The notes: a model not told the origin generated them from the sequence alone. DNA of 7,692 nucleotides from a virus (IMGVR_UViG_2579778773_000006), one strand, 5' to 3'. Shown: positions 1 to 7,692, numbered from the stretch's first letter. A program made the numbers and translations.

Positions 1-816
1 ATGAGCACTTGCATATATTGTGGTCAGGAAGGGAAAATGACTAGAGAACATATACTCCCGTCTTTCATCTATGAATATCAATATAGTACATCATCTGGGA
101 AAACTATAGGATGGCAAGAAAAATCAAAAAAAATGATAAGTGGTGAGGCTAAAATAAAAGATGTTTGTTTTCATTGTAATAACGTAGTTCTATGTAATTT
201 AGATGGTTATGTCAAAAATATGCTAGAGCGCTCTGGTTTCTTTACAGAGTGTTTTTTAAAAGAAAAAGTTAATATCGATTATAATTATAGCTTGCTTTCT
301 CGCTGGCTACTTAAAGTTGCATTTAATTCATCTAGGGCTAGTGAGAAGAAATTGTCTTTTTTTGATAAATACAAAGATGTTATTTTGGGGTTGAGTTCTG
401 ACTTTTCAGACTTTGCAATTTCGGCTGGGTTGTTTAAACCATTAAAATTGACACCATCGGAAATGCTAAAATATGGCCATAACCTCAAAGCGCATCCTTC
501 GGGATATGCGAATCCTTTCTTTGGTCGAATTTCATGGGGCGAATTCGAATCATCCGAATGCGCGGTGAAACAGATTGTAATTGGTGCCGCAATTTTTCAT
601 ATTCTAGCTTTTAAAGGCGATTTGCATAGAAATCGAAAGAAAGCTTTAGTTAAGGAATATTTAGAAACTTGCAAAGGAATGACTCTCATTAGGAAAAATA
701 AATCTAAAGTAGATGTAATGCAAACCCCCATAACCTTTCTTGACTCAATGAAGCATCATATGCAACGCCCAGAGGTTGAACCATACTTGAGAGAAATATC
801 CCAAAATATCAATTAA
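1..816 (+). CDS. Cargo protein of unknown function with N-terminal HNH-like Cys/His (zinc-ribbon nuclease-type) motif; candidate anti-phage defence effector or free-standing HNH endonuclease
   Basis: Uninterrupted 271-codon ORF from an ATG at window position 1 to TAA at 814-816. N-terminal motif reads C4-x2-C7 ... E16-H17-I-L-P20 ... C56-F-H-C59-N-N ... L-C65-N, resembling the CxxC / (D/E)H-x2-P / N / CxxC layout of HNH nucleases. The remaining ~200 aa carry no motif I can name. Strongly AT-rich and Lys/Asn/Ile/Tyr/Phe-rich codon usage, unlike the phage genes downstream. The ORF touches the window edge, so the true start and any upstream partner cannot be confirmed. Confidence 0.65.
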   Translation: MSTCIYCGQEGKMTREHILPSFIYEYQYSTSSGKTIGWQEKSKKMISGEAKIKDVCFHCNNVVLCNLDGYVKNMLERSGFFTECFLKEKVNIDYNYSLLSRWLLKVAFNSSRASEKKLSFFDKYKDVILGLSSDFSDFAISAGLFKPLKLTPSEMLKYGHNLKAHPSGYANPFFGRISWGEFESSECAVKQIVIGAAIFHILAFKGDLHRNRKKALVKEYLETCKGMTLIRKNKSKVDVMQTPITFLDSMKHHMQRPEVEPYLREISQNIN

Positions 817-1088: not shown

Positions 1089-2279
1089 ATGAGTGACTAT
1101 CATCACGGCGTGCAGGTGCTGGAGATTAACGACGGCACCCGCGTCATTTCCACCGTATCCACTGCCATTGTCGGCATGGTCTGCACGGCCAGCGATGCGG
1201 ATGCGGAAACCTTCCCCCTCAATAAACCGGTGCTGATTACCAATGTGCAGAGCGCAATTGCAAAGGCTGGTAAAAAAGGCACGCTGGCGGCATCGTTGCA
1301 GGCCATCGCCGACCAGTCAAAACCGGTCACCGTTGTCGTGCGTGTGGAAGACGGCACCGGCGACGACGAGGAAACGAAACTCGCGCAGACCGTTTCCAAT
1401 ATCATCGGCACCACCGACGAAAACGGTCAGTACACCGGACTGAAAGCCCTGATGGGGGCGGAGTCGGTTACCGGTGTTAAACCGCGTATTCTCGGTGTGC
1501 CGGGACTGGACACCAAAGAGGTGGCGGTTGCACTGGCATCAGTCTGTCAGAAGCTGCGCGCTTTCGGGTATATCAGCGCATGGGGCTGTAAAACCATTTC
1601 CGAGGTGAAAGCCTACCGCCAGAATTTCAGCCAGCGTGAGCTGATGGTCATCTGGCCGGATTTCCTCGCATGGGATACGGTCGCCAGTACCACCGCCACC
1701 GCGTATGCCACCGCCCGTGCGCTGGGCCTGCGCGCTAAAATCGACCAGGAGCAGGGCTGGCATAAAACGCTGTCCAATGTCGGGGTGAACGGTGTTACCG
1801 GCATCAGCGCATCCGTCTTCTGGGATTTGCAGGAGTCCGGCACCGATGCTGACCTGCTTAACGAGTCAGGCGTCACTACGCTGATTCGCCGCGACGGTTT
1901 CCGCTTCTGGGGTAACCGTACCTGCTCCGATGACCCGCTGTTCCTCTTTGAAAACTACACCCGCACCGCGCAGGTGCTGGCCGACTCGATGGCTGAGGCG
2001 CACATGTGGGCGGTGGACAAGCCCATCACTGCAACGCTGATTCGCGACATCGTTGACGGCATCAATGCCAAATTCCGTGAGCTGAAAACAAACGGCTATA
2101 TCGTGGATGCGACCTGCTGGTTCAGCGAAGAATCCAACGATGCGGAAACCCTCAAGGCCGGAAAACTGTATATCGACTATGACTATACCCCGGTGCCTCC
2201 TCTTGAAAACCTGACCCTGCGCCAGCGTATTACCGATAAATACCTGGCAAATCTGGTCACCTCGGTTAACAGCAATTAA
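1089..2279 (+). CDS. FI: Contractile tail sheath protein (P2 gpFI family)
   Basis: 396-aa ORF; the translation (MSDYHHGVQVLEINDGTRVISTV...YLANLVTSVNSN) is recognisable as P2 FI tail sheath, and the length equals P2 gpFI. GGAG Shine-Dalgarno at 1077-1080, 8 nt before the ATG. First gene of the conserved FI-FII-E-T-U-D order. Confidence 0.95.
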   Translation: MSDYHHGVQVLEINDGTRVISTVSTAIVGMVCTASDADAETFPLNKPVLITNVQSAIAKAGKKGTLAASLQAIADQSKPVTVVVRVEDGTGDDEETKLAQTVSNIIGTTDENGQYTGLKALMGAESVTGVKPRILGVPGLDTKEVAVALASVCQKLRAFGYISAWGCKTISEVKAYRQNFSQRELMVIWPDFLAWDTVASTTATAYATARALGLRAKIDQEQGWHKTLSNVGVNGVTGISASVFWDLQESGTDADLLNESGVTTLIRRDGFRFWGNRTCSDDPLFLFENYTRTAQVLADSMAEAHMWAVDKPITATLIRDIVDGINAKFRELKTNGYIVDATCWFSEESNDAETLKAGKLYIDYDYTPVPPLENLTLRQRITDKYLANLVTSVNSN

Positions 2280-2291
2280 GGAGCCTGACCG

Positions 2292-2810
2292 ATGGCAATG
2301 CCGCGCAAACTCAAGTTAATGAACGTCTTTCTGAACGGCTACAGCTATCAGGGCGTTGCAAAGTCCGTCACGCTGCCAAAACTGACCCGTAAGCTCGAAA
2401 ACTATCGCGGTGCGGGGATGAACGGCAGCGCACCGGTAGACCTCGGCCTTGATGACGATGCGCTGTCAATGGAGTGGTCGCTCGGTGGCTTCCCGGATTC
2501 GGTTATCTGGGAGCTTTACGCCGCAACCGGTGTGGATGCCGTACCGATTCGTTTTGCAGGCTCTTACCAGCGCGACGATACCGGCGAAACGGTGGCCGTC
2601 GAGGTGGTCATGCGTGGACGTCAGAAAGAAATCGACACCGGCGAGGGCAAACAGGGAGAAGACACCGAGTCGAAAATCTCCGTGGTCTGCACCTATTTCC
2701 GGCTGACGATGGACGGTAAGGAGCTGGTCGAAATCGACACCATCAACATGATTGAGAAGGTGAACGGCGTCGACCGGCTGGAGCAACACCGCCGCAATAT
2801 TGGCCTGTGA
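2292..2810 (+). CDS. FII: Tail tube protein (P2 gpFII family)
   Basis: 172-aa ORF (MAMPRKLKLMNVFLNGYSYQGVAKSVTLPKL...) recognisable as P2 FII tail tube. AAGGAG RBS at 2277-2282 overlaps the FI stop codon. Lies immediately after the sheath gene as in P2. Confidence 0.95.
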   Translation: MAMPRKLKLMNVFLNGYSYQGVAKSVTLPKLTRKLENYRGAGMNGSAPVDLGLDDDALSMEWSLGGFPDSVIWELYAATGVDAVPIRFAGSYQRDDTGETVAVEVVMRGRQKEIDTGEGKQGEDTESKISVVCTYFRLTMDGKELVEIDTINMIEKVNGVDRLEQHRRNIGL

Positions 2811-2817
2811 TTTTCAT

Positions 2818-2838
2818 CCGGTCAGCCTGGCTGACCGG
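2818..2838 (+). other. GC-rich stem-loop in the FII-E intergenic region (possible mRNA stability element or partial attenuator; not a canonical terminator)
   Basis: CCGGTCAGC (2818-2826) pairs with GCTGACCGG (2830-2838) around a 3-nt loop (9-bp perfect stem). The downstream sequence TTAACCCCCGATT lacks a U-tract, so efficient intrinsic termination is unlikely. Confidence 0.35.
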
Positions 2839-2867
2839 TTAACCCCCGATTCAGAAGTGAGAAAACC

Positions 2868-3143
2868 ATGAACAAAGAAAATGTGATTACCCTGGACAAT
2901 CCGGTCAAGCGTGGTGAGCAGGTCATCGAACAGGTCACGCTGATGAAACCCAATGCCGGGACGCTGCGCGGTGTCAGTCTGGCTGCGGTCGCGAACTCCG
3001 AAGTCGATGCACTGATTAAGGTGCTGCCGCGCATGACGGCACCGATGCTGACCGAGCAGGAAGTTGCCGCGCTGGAACTGCCTGACCTTGTGGCGCTGGC
3101 CGGTAAGGTGGTCGGTTTTTTGTCGCCGAACTCGGTGCAGTGA
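2868..3143 (+). CDS. E: Tail assembly chaperone gpE (zero-frame product)
   Basis: 91-aa ORF (MNKENVITLDNPVKRGEQVIEQVTLMKPNAG...) sits between the tube and tape-measure genes as in P2. Length matches P2 gpE. It contains the slippery run near its 3' end. Confidence 0.9.
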   Translation: MNKENVITLDNPVKRGEQVIEQVTLMKPNAGTLRGVSLAAVANSEVDALIKVLPRMTAPMLTEQEVAALELPDLVALAGKVVGFLSPNSVQ

Positions 3144-3295
3144 CGTTCCCGAAAAATCTCTCGGTCGATGACCTGATGGCGGATGTGGCAGTGATATTTC
3201 ACTGGCCGCCATCAGAACTGTATCCCATGAGCCTGACCGAACTCATCACATGGCGCGAAAAGGCGCTCCGGCGAAGCGGAAACACGAATGAGTAA
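2868..3295 (+). CDS. E+E': Tail assembly chaperone frameshift product gpE+E' (made by -1 frameshift near 3119-3122)
   Basis: Shifting -1 at the TTTTTTG site gives the continuation ...VAELGAVTFPKNLSVDDLMADVAVIFHWPPSELYPMSLTELITWREKALRRSGNTNE, ending at TAA 3293-3295. The predicted fusion is 142 aa, the length known for P2 E+E'. The arrangement parallels the G/GT chaperone frameshift conserved upstream of tape-measure genes. Confidence 0.7.
3114..3122 (+). promoter_or_regulatory. Programmed -1 ribosomal frameshift slippery site (G GTT TTT TG) for E -> E+E'
   Basis: A T6 run (3116-3121) lies within GGT-TTT-TTG in the E frame, 7 codons before the E stop. The -1 frame is open from here to TAA at 3293-3295. 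Confidence 0.7.
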
Positions 3296-5735
3296 CAATG
3301 TAAAATTACAGGTATTGCTCAGGGCTGTTGACCAGGCATCCCGCCCGTTTAAATCCATCCGCACAGCGAGTAAGTCGCTGTCGGGGGATATCCGGGAAAC
3401 ACAAAAATCACTGCGCGAGCTGAACGGTCACGCATCCCGTATTGAGGGATTCCGCAAGACCAGTGCACAGCTCGCCGTGACTGGTCATGCACTTGAAAAG
3501 GCTCGGCAGGAAGCCGAAGCCCTTGCCACACAGTTTAAAAACACCGAACGTCCGACCCGTGCTCAGGCGAAAGTGCTGGAATCCGCAAAGCGTGCGGCGG
3601 AGGACTTACAGGCGAAATATAACCGCCTGACGGATTCCGTTAAACGCCAGCAGCGGGAACTGGCCGCTGTGGGAATTAATACCCGCAATCTTGCACATGA
3701 TGAGCAGGGGCTGAAAAACCGTATCAGTGAAACCACCGCACAGCTTAATCGTCAGCGCGACGCACTGGCGCGTGTCAGTGCGCAACAGGCAAAACTTAAC
3801 GCAGTAAAACAGCGTTATCAGGCCGGAAAGGAACTGGCCGGAAATATGGCCTCAGTGGGCGCTGCCGGTGTGGGGATTGCGGCGGCGGGAACGATGGCCG
3901 GAGTTAAGCTGCTGATGCCCGGTTATGAGTTTGCGCAGAAAAACTCAGAATTGCAGGCCGTGCTAGGAGTGGCAAAAGACTCCGCCGAAATGACCGCACT
4001 CCGCAAGCAGGCGCGCCAGCTCGGCGACAATACCGCCGCCTCAGCGGATGATGCGGCCAGTGCACAGATAATCATCGCGAAAGCGGGTGGGGATGTTGAT
4101 GCCATTCAGGCGGCAACACCGGTCACGCTGAATATGGCGCTGGCGAACCGCCGCACGATGGAAGAAAACGCCGCCCTGCTGATGGGGATGAAATCCGCCT
4201 TTCAGCTTTCAAACGATAAGGTCGCTCATATCGGGGATGTTCTCTCCATGACGATGAACAAAACCGCCGCCGATTTTGACGGCATGAGCGATGCGCTGAC
4301 CTATGCCGCACCTGTGGCAAAAAATGCCGGTGTCAGCATTGAAGAAACCGCCGCAATGGTCGGGGCGCTGCATGATGCAAAAATCACAGGCTCAATGGCG
4401 GGGACGGGAAGCCGTGCCGTGTTAAGCCGCCTGCAGGCACCGACGGGAAAAGCATGGGATGCACTCAAAGAGCTTGGCGTGAAAACCTCAGACAGCAAGG
4501 GAAACACCCGGCCAATATTTACCATTCTGAAAGAAATGCAGGCCAGTTTTGAGAAAAACCGGCTCGGTACTGCCCAGCAGGCTGAATACATGAAAACCAT
4601 TTTCGGGGAGGAGGCCAGCTCAGCCGCCGCTGTGCTGATGACTGCCGCCTCAACCGGAAAGCTGGACAAACTGACCGCTGCGTTTAAAGCCTCAGACGGG
4701 AAGACCGCCGAGCTGGTAAATATCATGCAGGACAACCTCGGCGGTGACTTTAAGGAGTTTCAGTCCGCTTATGAGGCGGTGGGGACTGACCTGTTTGACC
4801 AGCAGGAAGGCGCGCTGCGTAAGCTCACGCAGACGGCCACAAAGTATGTGTTAAAACTCGACGGCTGGATACAGAAAAACAAATCACTGGCGTCAACCAT
4901 TGGCCTCATTGCCGGTGGCGCGCTGGCGCTTACTGGCATCATCGGTGCAATTGGTCTTGTTGCCTGGCCGGTTATCACCGGCATCAATGCCATCATCGCG
5001 GCAGCAGGCGCAATGGGGGCAATCTTCACGACGGTTGGCAGTGCTGTTATGACGGCCATCGGGGCGATTAGCTGGCCGGTTGTGGCCGTGGTGGCCGCCA
5101 TTGTCGCCGGGGCGTTGCTTATCCGTAAATACTGGGAGCCTGTCAGCGCATTCTTTGGCGGTGTGGTTGAAGGGCTGAAAGCGGCATTTGCGCCGGTGGG
5201 GGAACTGTTCACGCCACTGAAGCCGGTGTTTGACTGGCTGGGCGAAAAGTTACAGGCCGCGTGGCAGTGGTTTAAAAACCTGATTGCCCCGGTCAAAGCC
5301 ACCCAGGACACCCTGAACCGTTGCCGTGACACGGGCGTCATGTTCGGGCAGGCACTGGCTGACGCGCTGATGCTGCCGCTTAATGCGTTCAACAAACTGC
5401 GCAGCGGCATTGACTGGGTACTGGAAAAGCTCGGGGTCATCAACAAAGAGTCAGACACACTTGACCAGACCGCCGCCAGAACTCATGCCGCCACATATGG
5501 CACCGGTGGTTATATTCCGGCGACCAGCTCTTATGCAGGCTATCAGGCTTATCAGCCGGTTACGGCACCGGCTGGCCGCTCTTATGTAGACCAGAGTAAA
5601 AACGAATATCACATTAACCTGACGGGTGGTTCTGCGCCGGGAACACAGCTTGACCGCCAGTTACAGGATGCGCTCGAAAAATACGAGCGGGATAAACGTG
5701 CGCGCGCCCGTGCCAGCATGATGCATGACGGTTAA
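3288..5735 (+). CDS. T: Tail tape measure protein (P2 gpT family)
   Basis: 815-aa ORF, equal in length to P2 gpT. The N-terminal region is charged and coiled-coil-like (Q/R/A/L/K-rich). The C-terminal part has Gly/Ala/Ile-rich hydrophobic segments (e.g. LIAGGALALTGIIGAIGLVAWPVITGINAIIAAAGAMGAIF) typical of tape measure proteins. The start overlaps the E' terminus by 8 nt. Confidence 0.93.
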   Translation: MSNNVKLQVLLRAVDQASRPFKSIRTASKSLSGDIRETQKSLRELNGHASRIEGFRKTSAQLAVTGHALEKARQEAEALATQFKNTERPTRAQAKVLESAKRAAEDLQAKYNRLTDSVKRQQRELAAVGINTRNLAHDEQGLKNRISETTAQLNRQRDALARVSAQQAKLNAVKQRYQAGKELAGNMASVGAAGVGIAAAGTMAGVKLLMPGYEFAQKNSELQAVLGVAKDSAEMTALRKQARQLGDNTAASADDAASAQIIIAKAGGDVDAIQAATPVTLNMALANRRTMEENAALLMGMKSAFQLSNDKVAHIGDVLSMTMNKTAADFDGMSDALTYAAPVAKNAGVSIEETAAMVGALHDAKITGSMAGTGSRAVLSRLQAPTGKAWDALKELGVKTSDSKGNTRPIFTILKEMQASFEKNRLGTAQQAEYMKTIFGEEASSAAAVLMTAASTGKLDKLTAAFKASDGKTAELVNIMQDNLGGDFKEFQSAYEAVGTDLFDQQEGALRKLTQTATKYVLKLDGWIQKNKSLASTIGLIAGGALALTGIIGAIGLVAWPVITGINAIIAAAGAMGAIFTTVGSAVMTAIGAISWPVVAVVAAIVAGALLIRKYWEPVSAFFGGVVEGLKAAFAPVGELFTPLKPVFDWLGEKLQAAWQWFKNLIAPVKATQDTLNRCRDTGVMFGQALADALMLPLNAFNKLRSGIDWVLEKLGVINKESDTLDQTAARTHAATYGTGGYIPATSSYAGYQAYQPVTAPAGRSYVDQSKNEYHINLTGGSAPGTQLDRQLQDALEKYERDKRARARASMMHDG

Positions 5736-5749
5736 GGAGGTGACGAAAA

Positions 5750-6229
5750 ATGATGCTCGCGTTAGGTATGTTTGTTTTTATGCGCCAGACGCTGCCACAC
5801 CAGACCATGCAGCGTGAATCAGATTATCGCTGGCCGTCAAATTCCCGTATCGGTAAACGGGATGCCTTTCAGTTTCTCGGTGTTGGCGAGGAAAACATCA
5901 CGCTTGCCGGTGTGCTTTATCCCGAGCTGACCGGCGGAAAGCTGACGATGACCACGCTCAGGCTGATGGCAGAGGAAGGTCGGGCGTGGCCGTTGCTGGA
6001 TGGCACCGGCATGATTTACGGCATGTATGTCATCAGCAGGGTGAGTGAAACAGGGAGTATTTTCTTTGCAGACGGCACACCCCGAAAAATTGATTTTACG
6101 CTGTCGCTCACCCGCGTTGATGAATCACTGGCCGCGCTTTATGGCGATATCGGTAAACAGGCGGAATCGCTCATCGGTAAGGCTGGCAGTATGTCGACCA
6201 GATTCACGGGTATGACGGGGGCGGGATAA
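5750..6229 (+). CDS. U: Tail protein gpU
   Basis: 159-aa ORF (MMLALGMFVFMRQTLPHQTMQRESDYRWP...) at the position and length of P2 gpU. Strong AGGAGGTGA RBS (5734-5742), 7 nt before the ATG. Confidence 0.9.
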   Translation: MMLALGMFVFMRQTLPHQTMQRESDYRWPSNSRIGKRDAFQFLGVGEENITLAGVLYPELTGGKLTMTTLRLMAEEGRAWPLLDGTGMIYGMYVISRVSETGSIFFADGTPRKIDFTLSLTRVDESLAALYGDIGKQAESLIGKAGSMSTRFTGMTGAG

Positions 6230-7392
6230 TGCTGGATGCACTGACATTTGATGCAGGCAGTACGCTGACGCCGGATTACATGCTGATGCTCGACAGCAGG
6301 GATATTACCGGCAATATCAGCGACCGTCTGATGAGCATGACCCTGACGGATAACCGGGGCTTTGAGGCTGACCAGCTTGATATTGAACTGAACGATGCCG
6401 ACGGGCAGGTCGGACTGCCGGTTCGTGGCGCTGTCCTGACGGTGTATATCGGCTGGAAAGGTTTTGCCCTGGTATGCAAAGGGAAATTCACCGTTGATGA
6501 GGTTGAACACAGGGGCGCGCCGGATGTGGTCACTATCCGCGCCCGGAGTGCAGATTTTCGCGGGACGCTCAATTCCCGCCGTGAAGGCTCCTGGCATGAC
6601 ATCACGCTCGGTGCGATTGTTGAGGCGATAGCCTCCCGTAACAGGCTGGAAGCCAGTGTTGCTCCGTCACTGGCCGGAATAAAAATTCCACACATCGACC
6701 AGTCGCAGGAGTCCGATGCGAAATTCCTGACCCGCCTTGCTGAACGCAACGGCGGTGAGGTGTCGGTAAAAATGGGAAAACTGTTGTTTCTCAAGGCGGG
6801 GCAGGGGGTGACGGCCAGCGGTAAAAAAATCCCGCAGATTACCATCACCCGCAGCGATGGCGACCGACATCATTTTGCGATTGCTGACCGTGGAGCCTAC
6901 ACCGGCGTAACGGCAAAGTGGTTACACACCAAAGACCCGAAGCCACAAAAGCAGAAGGTAAAACTGAAACGCAAAAAGAAAGAGAAACACCTGCGCGCAC
7001 TGGAGCACCCGAAAGCGAAACCGGTCACGCAGAAGAAAGCACCAAAAGTACCGGAAGCGCGCGAAGGTGAATACATGGCCGGTGAGGATGACAATGTTTT
7101 TGCCCTGACCACGGTATATGCCACGAAAGCGCAGGCCATGCGCGCCGCTCAGGCGAAGTGGGATAAACTGCAACGGGGCGTTGCGGAGTTCTCCATCAGC
7201 CTGGCTACCGGTCGGGCAGATATTTACACGGAAACACCGGTTAAGGTGTCAGGCTTTAAGCGCGTCATAGACGAGCAGGACTGGACCATCACTAAGGTGA
7301 CACATTTTCTGAATAATAGCGGCTTCACGACGTCCTTAGAGCTTGAGGTCAGGCTTTCTGATGTGGAGTACGAAACAGAAGATGATGAGTGA
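6229..7392 (+). CDS. D: Tail/baseplate protein gpD (late control gene D family)
   Basis: 387-aa ORF, equal in length to P2 gpD. The start ATG overlaps the U stop (TAATG at 6227-6231), suggesting translational coupling. Last structural gene before ogr, as in P2. Confidence 0.9.
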   Translation: MLDALTFDAGSTLTPDYMLMLDSRDITGNISDRLMSMTLTDNRGFEADQLDIELNDADGQVGLPVRGAVLTVYIGWKGFALVCKGKFTVDEVEHRGAPDVVTIRARSADFRGTLNSRREGSWHDITLGAIVEAIASRNRLEASVAPSLAGIKIPHIDQSQESDAKFLTRLAERNGGEVSVKMGKLLFLKAGQGVTASGKKIPQITITRSDGDRHHFAIADRGAYTGVTAKWLHTKDPKPQKQKVKLKRKKKEKHLRALEHPKAKPVTQKKAPKVPEAREGEYMAGEDDNVFALTTVYATKAQAMRAAQAKWDKLQRGVAEFSISLATGRADIYTETPVKVSGFKRVIDEQDWTITKVTHFLNNSGFTTSLELEVRLSDVEYETEDDE

Positions 7393-7410: not shown

Positions 7411-7439
7411 TTGTTTTATAAGGATAAATTAACTAAAAT
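7411..7439 (+). promoter_or_regulatory. Candidate sigma70-type promoter for ogr
   Basis: TTGTTT (7411-7416), 17-nt spacer, TAAAAT (7434-7439), located in the AT-rich D-ogr intergenic region about 35 nt upstream of the ogr ATG. Sequence-only prediction. Confidence 0.3.
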
Positions 7440-7473
7440 GGCACCATCAACAAAACCGGAAGAGGTGCTCGCG

Positions 7474-7692
7474 ATGTTTCATTGTCCTTTATGCCAGCAT
7501 GCCGCACATGCGCGTACAAGTCGCTATATCACTGACACGACAAAAGAGCGTTATCACCAGTGTCAGAACGTGAATTGCAGCGCCACGTTCATCACTTATG
7601 AGTCGGTACAGCGATACATCGTGAAGCCGGGAGAGATCCACGCCGTAAGGCCGCACCCGTTGCCATCAGGACAGCAAATTATGTGGATGTAA
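7474..7692 (+). CDS. ogr: Late gene transcriptional activator Ogr (zinc-finger protein)
   Basis: 72-aa product MFHCPLCQHAAHARTSRYITDTTKERYHQCQNVNCSATFITYESVQRYIVKPGE... with C-x2-C ... C-x4-C zinc-binding cysteines, recognisable as P2 Ogr. AGGTG RBS at 7463-7467, 6 nt before ATG 7474. The ORF-track entry starting at 7411 is a 21-codon in-frame upstream extension with no RBS and is not used. Confidence 0.9.
   Translation: MFHCPLCQHAAHARTSRYITDTTKERYHQCQNVNCSATFITYESVQRYIVKPGEIHAVRPHPLPSGQQIMWM

Follow-up and report, generated by a model that had tools for sequence, protein, structure and literature searches.

The E+E' fusion of phage P2 is reportedly made at about 10%, and E' is said to be essential for lytic growth. 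The fusion results from a -1 shift at the sequence TTTTTTG, which yields a 142-aa E+E' alongside the 91-aa E and which operates with no downstream hairpin (PMC3091744, summarising Christie et al. 2002, J Bacteriol 184:6522, and Xu et al. 2004). The P2 reference genome (NC_001895) annotates both E and a joined E+E' CDS ('shares amino terminus with gpE; -1 frameshift; essential tail protein'), together with a misc_feature recorded as 'site of -1 translational frameshift'. For the analogous pair in phage lambda, gpG and gpGT (Levin et al. 1993; Xu, Hendrix and Duda 2004, 2013, 2014), the model is that the common part binds the tape measure protein, that the extension engages the tube protein, and that neither is found in the virion (PMC5009743).

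The window that we analysed is a single stretch of 7,692 nt of viral origin (IMGVR_UViG_2579778773_000006), which the ORF map and Pfam matches identify as the late tail operon of a P2-like (Peduovirus) prophage of E. coli. Over positions 2292-3700 it shares 98-99% identity with many Peduovirus genomes, and positions 1-1100 are a 100% match to a prophage in E. coli CE0011b (NZ_CP119008). The E/E' pair sits between FII (tube) and T (tape measure) in the FI-FII-E-T-U-D operon, and the coordinates of all parts are given in Table 1. The window ends on the last sense codon of ogr, so that the ogr stop and the operon terminator lie outside it; a 93-aa ORF opening with TTG (7411-7692) is an artefact of upstream extension of this gene, whose true start is the ATG at 7477.

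Table 1. Features of the tail operon window and of the E/E' frameshift locus (positions counted from the first nucleotide of the window).
Feature	Position	Strand	Basis and remarks
AT-rich cargo ORF	1-816	+	ORF map
Sheath gene FI	1089-2279	+	ORF map, Pfam
Tube gene FII	2292-2810	+	ORF map, Pfam Phage_tube; synteny anchor upstream of the chaperone pair
Gene E, zero-frame tail assembly chaperone, 91 aa	2868-3143	+	Pfam Phage_TAC_7 on residues 7-85
E+E' fusion span, 142 aa; base 3122 read twice	2868-3295	+	Sequence reading, P2 annotation and alignment
TAA closing the -1 frame, 4 codons before the slip site	3104-3106	+	Sequence reading
16S-complementary element AGGTGGTC	3106-3113	+	2 nt 5' of the heptamer; consensus AGGTGRTY; synonymous-site conservation
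Slippery heptamer T TTT TTG (X XXY YYZ)	3116-3122	+	Sequence reading; same heptamer in P2
E' segment, -1 frame, 57 codons + TAA	3122-3295	+	Pfam Phage_P2_GpE on fusion residues 104-139
8-nt overlap ATGAGTAA: T start 3288-3290, E' stop 3293-3295	3288-3295	+	Sequence reading
Tape measure gene T, 815 aa	3288-5735	+	Pfam PhageMin_Tail; presumed client of E and E+E'
Gene U	5750-6229	+	ORF map, Pfam GpU
Gene D	6229-7392	+	ORF map, Pfam GPD
ogr	7477-7692	+	Pfam Ogr_Delta, ATG 7477

Alignment of positions 2868-3295 with P2 (NC_001895, 19430-19857) gave 9 substitutions in 428 nt (97.9% DNA identity) and no indel, with the heptamer and its 30-nt surroundings identical in the two phages. Upstream of the slip site, seven of the eight differences fall on third positions of frame 0, and the single difference downstream falls on a third position of the -1 frame. 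The likeness extends to the genes and their order (FI-FII-E-E'-T-U-D-ogr), to their lengths (E 276 nt, E+E' span 428 nt, T 2448 nt) and to 141 of the 142 amino acids of the fusion. What distinguishes the window from P2 is these nine silent or near-silent substitutions, one residue (N29 in the window, S29 in P2) and another cargo region upstream of the sheath gene. The original prediction had taken the pair for P2 E/E+E' at its known length, and this identification matches the NC_001895 annotation, the literature summary and the independent comparative tests described below. The observation is confirmed, and the locus very probably represents a P2-type E/E+E' programmed -1 ribosomal frameshift in a P2-like E. 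coli prophage. The frameshift as such is already known, being a textbook recoding site, annotated in the P2 reference, that occurs here in a near-identical copy of P2 E/E'. By virtue of that near-identity to P2, from which the experimental evidence comes (Christie 2002), this prophage too would be expected to produce E+E' by slippage and to need it in tail assembly.

The anatomy of the site is largely as first described. E ends in frame 0 at the TGA at 3141-3143, and six codons before this stop the frame reads GGT TTT TTG, placing the T6 run (3116-3121) and the heptamer in X XXY YYZ phase. No stop interrupts the -1 frame from the T6 run up to the TAA at 3293-3295, and the opening reaches back to 3107; the resulting -1 ORF overlaps E by 37 nt (3107-3143), has no start codon before the heptamer, and fits the overlap described for P2 (PMC3931495). 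The 142-aa fusion (...VVGFL-VAELGAVTFPKNLSVDD...) and the 8-nt overlap of E' with T, whose ATG is at 3288, also stood as predicted. Two figures needed correction: the extension, put at 58 residues, has 57 (residues 86-142), since 85 residues are common with E, and the gap left between zero-frame ORFs, put at 145 nt, is 144 nt (3144-3287). A scan of both strands of the window for in-phase heptamers that fall close to the 3' end of an ORF (50 codons or more) and lead into a longer -1 frame gave 3116-3122 as the only one. An open frame of 57 codons is in itself weak evidence, as shuffling of the segment gave P = 0.09. Both parts of the fusion, however, fall in known protein families: Phage_TAC_7 (PF10109) matches residues 7-85 of E (E = 2.6e-12), for which there is also a match to the 'tail protein' family phrog_103 (3.8e-43), and Phage_P2_GpE (PF06528) matches residues 104-139 of the fusion (E = 1.2e-21). 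A sequence search for a solved structure of E+E' returned none.

We compared the site across three sets of relatives. These were 12-13 diverged Peduoviridae (186, PSP3, EtG, ENT90, two Yersinia, four Klebsiella and two Burkholderia phages), 80 prophage loci from bacterial genomes, and 80 viral contigs, mostly of close relatives, with 92 + 78 unique sequences, or about 170 altogether. Each of the 12-13 diverged Peduoviridae has one qualifying heptamer at the homologous spot and a -1 frame that stays open for 56-58 codons and ends in the T start. T TTT TTN is found at the homologous position in every locus of all three sets, with a seventh base that is G in 69, A in 10 and C in one of the genome set, and G in 78 and A in two of the viral set. 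The -1 frame is likewise unbroken in every locus (80/80 prophage loci and 80/80 viral contigs) over 54-62 codons, and in nearly all of them it ends inside the tape-measure start (ATGAGTAA, ATGAGTGA or ATGAGTAG). Stops and frameshifts within the -1 frame, the kind of decay that the original prediction had named as evidence against itself, were found in none of the approximately 170 unique relatives. In eight pairwise comparisons with diverged phage relatives, pN/pS was 0.24-0.60 in the -1 frame, compared to 0.7-3.0 in the other two frames, which also contain 1-6 stops per relative. The most conserved part of the whole fusion is the E' domain (DDLMADIAVIFHWPPSE...WR.KA), and the residues VAELGA, encoded between the heptamer and position 3140, are conserved in the -1 frame. 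These patterns indicate that the -1 frame is under purifying selection.

The T6 run is 100% invariant across the 92 and 78 unique sequences, compared to major-base frequencies of 0.3-0.8 in nearby wobble columns. The base that precedes TTT TTG stays T despite changes in the amino acid that its codon specifies (GGT, CTT, ACT, AGT or AAT), and the keeping of this first T across amino acid changes implies selection on the RNA sequence rather than on the protein. Taken over the alignments, this indicates that the heptamer is under nucleotide-level selection.

The expected course of events at such a site is that most ribosomes would translate E and stop at the TGA at 3141, and that a minority would slip back by one base. 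In the slip state, tRNA-Phe on UUU (3117-3119) would occupy the P site and tRNA-Leu on UUG (3120-3122) the A site; the two would re-pair on UUU UUU (3116-3121), GUC (3122-3124) would be read next, and reading in the -1 frame to the TAA at 3293 would give the 142-aa E+E' with a Leu-Val junction (...GFL-VAELGAV...). Classical tandem slippage of this kind is the most likely mechanism. The junction residue would be Leu in the case of tandem slippage (tryptic peptide VVGFLVAELGAVTFPK), and Phe (VVGFFVAELGAVTFPK) if the A-site tRNA were chosen directly in the -1 frame or if the mRNA carried an extra U. By analogy with lambda gpG/gpGT, E and E+E' would serve as tail assembly chaperones for the tape measure protein T, with the shared E part binding T and the E' domain presumed, for P2, to recruit the tube protein, and the ratio of E to E+E' would be fixed by the frameshift.

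A stimulatory structure downstream of the slip site, which the original prediction had suggested looking for in 3123-3200, is not borne out. The fold of that segment has a z-score of 0.09 and that of 3090-3250 a z-score of -1.5, and RNAalifold applied to the 92 relatives gave no consensus pairs within about 55 nt downstream of the slip site. On these grounds we rejected a downstream stimulator, in agreement with PMC3091744; because there is no such structure, the efficiency of the shift is not predictable from the sequence. A hairpin of the form GCCG-N4-CGGC just 3' of the heptamer was rejected as well, since it is absent from the RNAalifold prediction and starts 1-2 nt away, too close for a 3' stimulator.

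The same frame change could in principle arise during transcription, with RNA polymerase adding a U on the T6 run, perhaps aided by a weak nascent hairpin at 3095-3116, and standard translation of the +1-nt mRNA producing E+E' with a GFF-VAEL junction. Insertion of one U does give the same frame, a terminator scan marks a hairpin and T-run at 3095-3121, more distant relatives (Xanthomonas, Stenotrophomonas) have T7 runs, in T7G and T7C variants (PMC3931495), and in the Burkholderia phages Mana and AP3 a strong hairpin (-17.4 kcal/mol) adjoins the T-run. However, the run in the window is only 6 nt long, where programmed transcriptional slippage is associated with long homopolymeric A/T runs of about 9 nt, and selection against slippage-prone A/T coding runs, across many bacterial genomes, is evident only at about that length (PMC1088944; PMC5009743). 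Nor is the hairpin at 3095-3116 conserved: 77.4% of cells pair compared to 76.9% in shuffles, 93 of 500 shuffles equal it, its central pairs are broken in 40-55% of loci, and its mean folding z-score is -0.5. Furthermore, the T-run always stands in X XXY YYZ phase, an equal run shifted by one base (NNC TTT TTT) occurring in none of the 92 + 78 loci. This constancy counts against slippage by the polymerase, because phase matters to the re-pairing of tRNAs and not to RNA polymerase. We consider it unlikely that transcriptional slippage accounts for E+E', with room for a minor contribution, and the upstream hairpin with its T-run, showing no covariation and no conservation, was rejected as a terminator-like or slippage element for the enterobacterial group. 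As to the hairpins themselves, the one at 3095-3121 in the consensus scan has eight pairs, four of them G-U, and is not conserved in enterobacterial relatives, and those of Mana and AP3 (positions 825-861 and 769-805 of their own loci, z = -4.2 and -2.8) end at the T6 run.

Another way to account for E' without ribosomal slippage is as a separate gene with its own start. Counted from the GTG at 3140, the -1 frame holds an ORF of 51 aa, and NZ_CP119008 (RefSeq/PGAP), like many GenBank phage records, lists E' as a separate CDS ('GpE family phage tail protein'). This GTG is, however, lineage-specific, and where starts exist in relatives their positions vary; 63 of the 92 unique relatives lack any ATG, GTG or TTG in the stretch of -1 frame that runs from the upstream stop to the conserved E' motif, on which basis we rejected independent initiation at 3140. 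Just 5' of 3140 there is only weak complementarity to the anti-SD (mean -2 to -4 kcal/mol), the conserved VAELGA lies upstream of the supposed start, and E' of P2 is described as being without a ribosome-binding site (PMC3931495). We therefore hold a separate E' gene to be very improbable, and the 51-aa ORF from GTG 3140 (window 3140-3295; positions 11139-11294 of the NZ_CP119008 segment 14755-31854) to have been split off from the fusion. The split annotation leaves the 142-aa product missing from protein sets and asserts a spurious start codon, and it is in annotation, rather than in discovery, that the value of this frameshift lies. In the same NZ_CP119008 record the IS2 transposase is given a 'programmed frameshift' join.

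The reading in which only E is functional, and the open -1 frame is either a random ORF or what is left of a decaying one, has a practically negligible probability: a 57-codon frame does turn up in 9% of segment shuffles, but this one matches a Pfam domain at E = 1e-21, is under purifying selection with no interruption in about 170 unique relatives from Enterobacterales and Burkholderia, and contains the most conserved part of the fusion, so that the comparative data refute this reading.

An element complementary to the 3' end of 16S rRNA lies directly 5' of the heptamer, at 3105-3113 (TAAGGTGGTC; core AGGTGGTC, family consensus AGGTGRTY). Its mean anti-SD duplex energy over the relatives is -11.7 kcal/mol. 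This value lies 4.9 SD under the average for the 270 positions scanned, and it surpasses in strength that of E's own ribosome-binding site. Codon choice within the element departs from that of its surroundings, with Lys encoded by AAG in 69 of 71 cases (97%) compared to 26% elsewhere in E/E', and Val by GTG in 84 of 88 (95%) compared to 38% elsewhere. Variable positions keep their pairing (A or G opposite U1532, C or U opposite G1530), and in 78 of the 92 loci all eight positions are able to pair with 16S 1530-1537, the relatives in all these statistics being phylogenetically non-independent. Among the most distant relatives the element is weakened or shifted in position, with GGAG at -16..-13 in the Burkholderia phages, and it is absent in YenM_42.18 and in a Sodalis prophage.

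The position of this element is not that of the known -1 stimulators. SD-like stimulators of -1 shifts act at 9-14 nt from the shift site and those of +1 shifts at 3 nt (PMC5009743, section 36), and the spacing to the heptamer here is 2 nt from the 3' edge of the element, 5 nt for its AAGGTG core and 7 nt from the G opposite C1535. The locus departs from SD-stimulated sites of the dnaX/IS type on both sides, having neither an SD-like element 9-14 nt 5' nor a stem-loop or pseudoknot 5-9 nt 3' of the shift site. Since the spacing lies outside the -1 range and closer to the 3 nt of +1 shifts, the element could be a pause element or even an attenuator. On the first view it might halt the elongating ribosome while the slippery codons occupy the P and A sites; on the second it might damp slippage on a U6 run that would be too slippery by itself. 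In either case it would set the ratio of E to E+E'. We put forward only tentatively, and with some doubt, that the AGGTGRTY element is a cis-acting regulator of the P2-family frameshift, working at a spacing outside the known -1 stimulatory range. No mention of an SD-like element at the P2 site was found in the searchable literature, the full texts of Christie 2002 and Xu 2004 lying outside it. If the element does tune efficiency at this non-canonical spacing, the rules for SD-like modulators of -1 frameshifting would have to be widened, which would help to explain how a site without structure produces a fixed chaperone ratio. Of the features at this locus, the rRNA-complementary element alone has some research value.

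The junction of E' with T has a regulatory aspect of its own. The SD of T is the weakest complementarity in the operon, at -3.7 kcal/mol (GCGGAAACACGAATG, 3266-3290) compared to -5 to -18 kcal/mol for the others. A weak SD combined with the conserved ATGAGTAA overlap fits translational coupling of T to termination of E', and it suggests that T may be translated with the help of ribosomes that reach their stop in the E' frame. The tight coupling of chaperone and tape measure genes named in the original prediction is therefore a possible one. Gene U, by comparison, has a near-perfect SD, TAAGGAGGTGA (window 5728-5752, -17.8 kcal/mol).

Two further features of the operon were noted upstream of E. 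The first is a perfect 9-bp hairpin at 2818-2838 on the + strand (CCGGTCAGC-CTG-GCTGACCGG), in the gap that separates the stop of FII (2810) from the start of E (2868); the fold of 2808-2867 that contains it has an energy of -18.8 kcal/mol (z = -2.9), and there is no U-tract. Its position is that of the feature annotated in phage 186 as 'tI; partial terminator of pJ transcript', and the corresponding intergenic region of 186, PSP3, EtG, ENT90 and the relatives from Klebsiella and Yersinia also holds a GC-rich hairpin, of other sequence, so that the stem looks conserved by compensation. The hairpin probably lowers transcription of E-T-U-D relative to the sheath and tube genes.

The second is the cargo ORF at the start of the window (+ strand), which lies between a tail-fibre assembly gene and the sheath gene, at the spot where P2 carries Z/fun. 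The Z/fun spot of P2 has been described as a hotspot for anti-phage cargo genes. The ORF encodes 271 aa, or 259 aa from position 37 as called by PGAP, and its AT-rich flank extends to about position 1088; its GC content is 31-38%, compared to about 56% in the tail genes. The product has an N-terminal CxxC...EH...CxxCN motif. Searches of Pfam, PADLOC and NCBIfam gave no match, PHROG gave only weak matches of unknown function, and a single-sequence AlphaFold model was unusable (pLDDT 40). Among 5,426 complete E. coli genomes the ORF was found in only four. In NZ_CP119008 the cargo region covers about 6.4 kb (segment 14755-31854, positions 2675-8816), from the tail-fibre assembly gene to the sheath gene. 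Its content is a copy of IS2, a gene for a 'transglycosylase domain-containing protein' and four genes for a 'hypothetical protein', among them the window ORF 1-816; upstream of the cargo, the tail-fibre gene is annotated as three pseudogene fragments.

Beyond P2, the systems to which the locus bears comparison are lambda G/GT and E. coli dnaX. The analogy with lambda, drawn in the original prediction, holds at the level of architecture. In both phages two overlapping ORFs lie between the major tail or tube gene and the tape measure gene, the -1 slip takes place 5-6 codons before the zero-frame stop, and the extension runs for 8 nt within the tape measure gene before it stops, lambda T ending at 10549 and H starting at 10542 (NC_001416), compared to 3295 and 3288 in the window; the overlap reads ATGGCTGA in lambda (10542-10549) and ATGAGTAA in the window. 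A downstream structure is required in neither (PMC5009743). The two differ in that the lambda heptamer is G GGA AAG, that the lambda proteins, of 140 and 279 aa, have twice the length, and that lambda H has a strong SD (AGGAGGAG) compared to the weak SD of T in the window; nor is there a comparable 16S-complementary element upstream of the lambda G/T site. BLASTP gave no match between E+E' and lambda GT at E <= 100, and the lambda G/GT class (Xu et al. 2004) is an architectural and functional grouping, not a homology family.

The likeness to dnaX is one of mechanism. Both sites are homopolymeric heptamers of the form X XXY YYZ (A AAA AAG in dnaX) suited to tandem -1 slippage, and both have an internal 16S-complementary element upstream. 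In dnaX, however, the SD-like element lies 10 nt from the shift site, compared to 2 nt (3' edge) here, and a hairpin stimulator lies downstream, where the window has none. The products differ too, in that the output of the dnaX frameshift is a truncation, whereas that of the E/E' site would be a C-terminal extension, E+E'.
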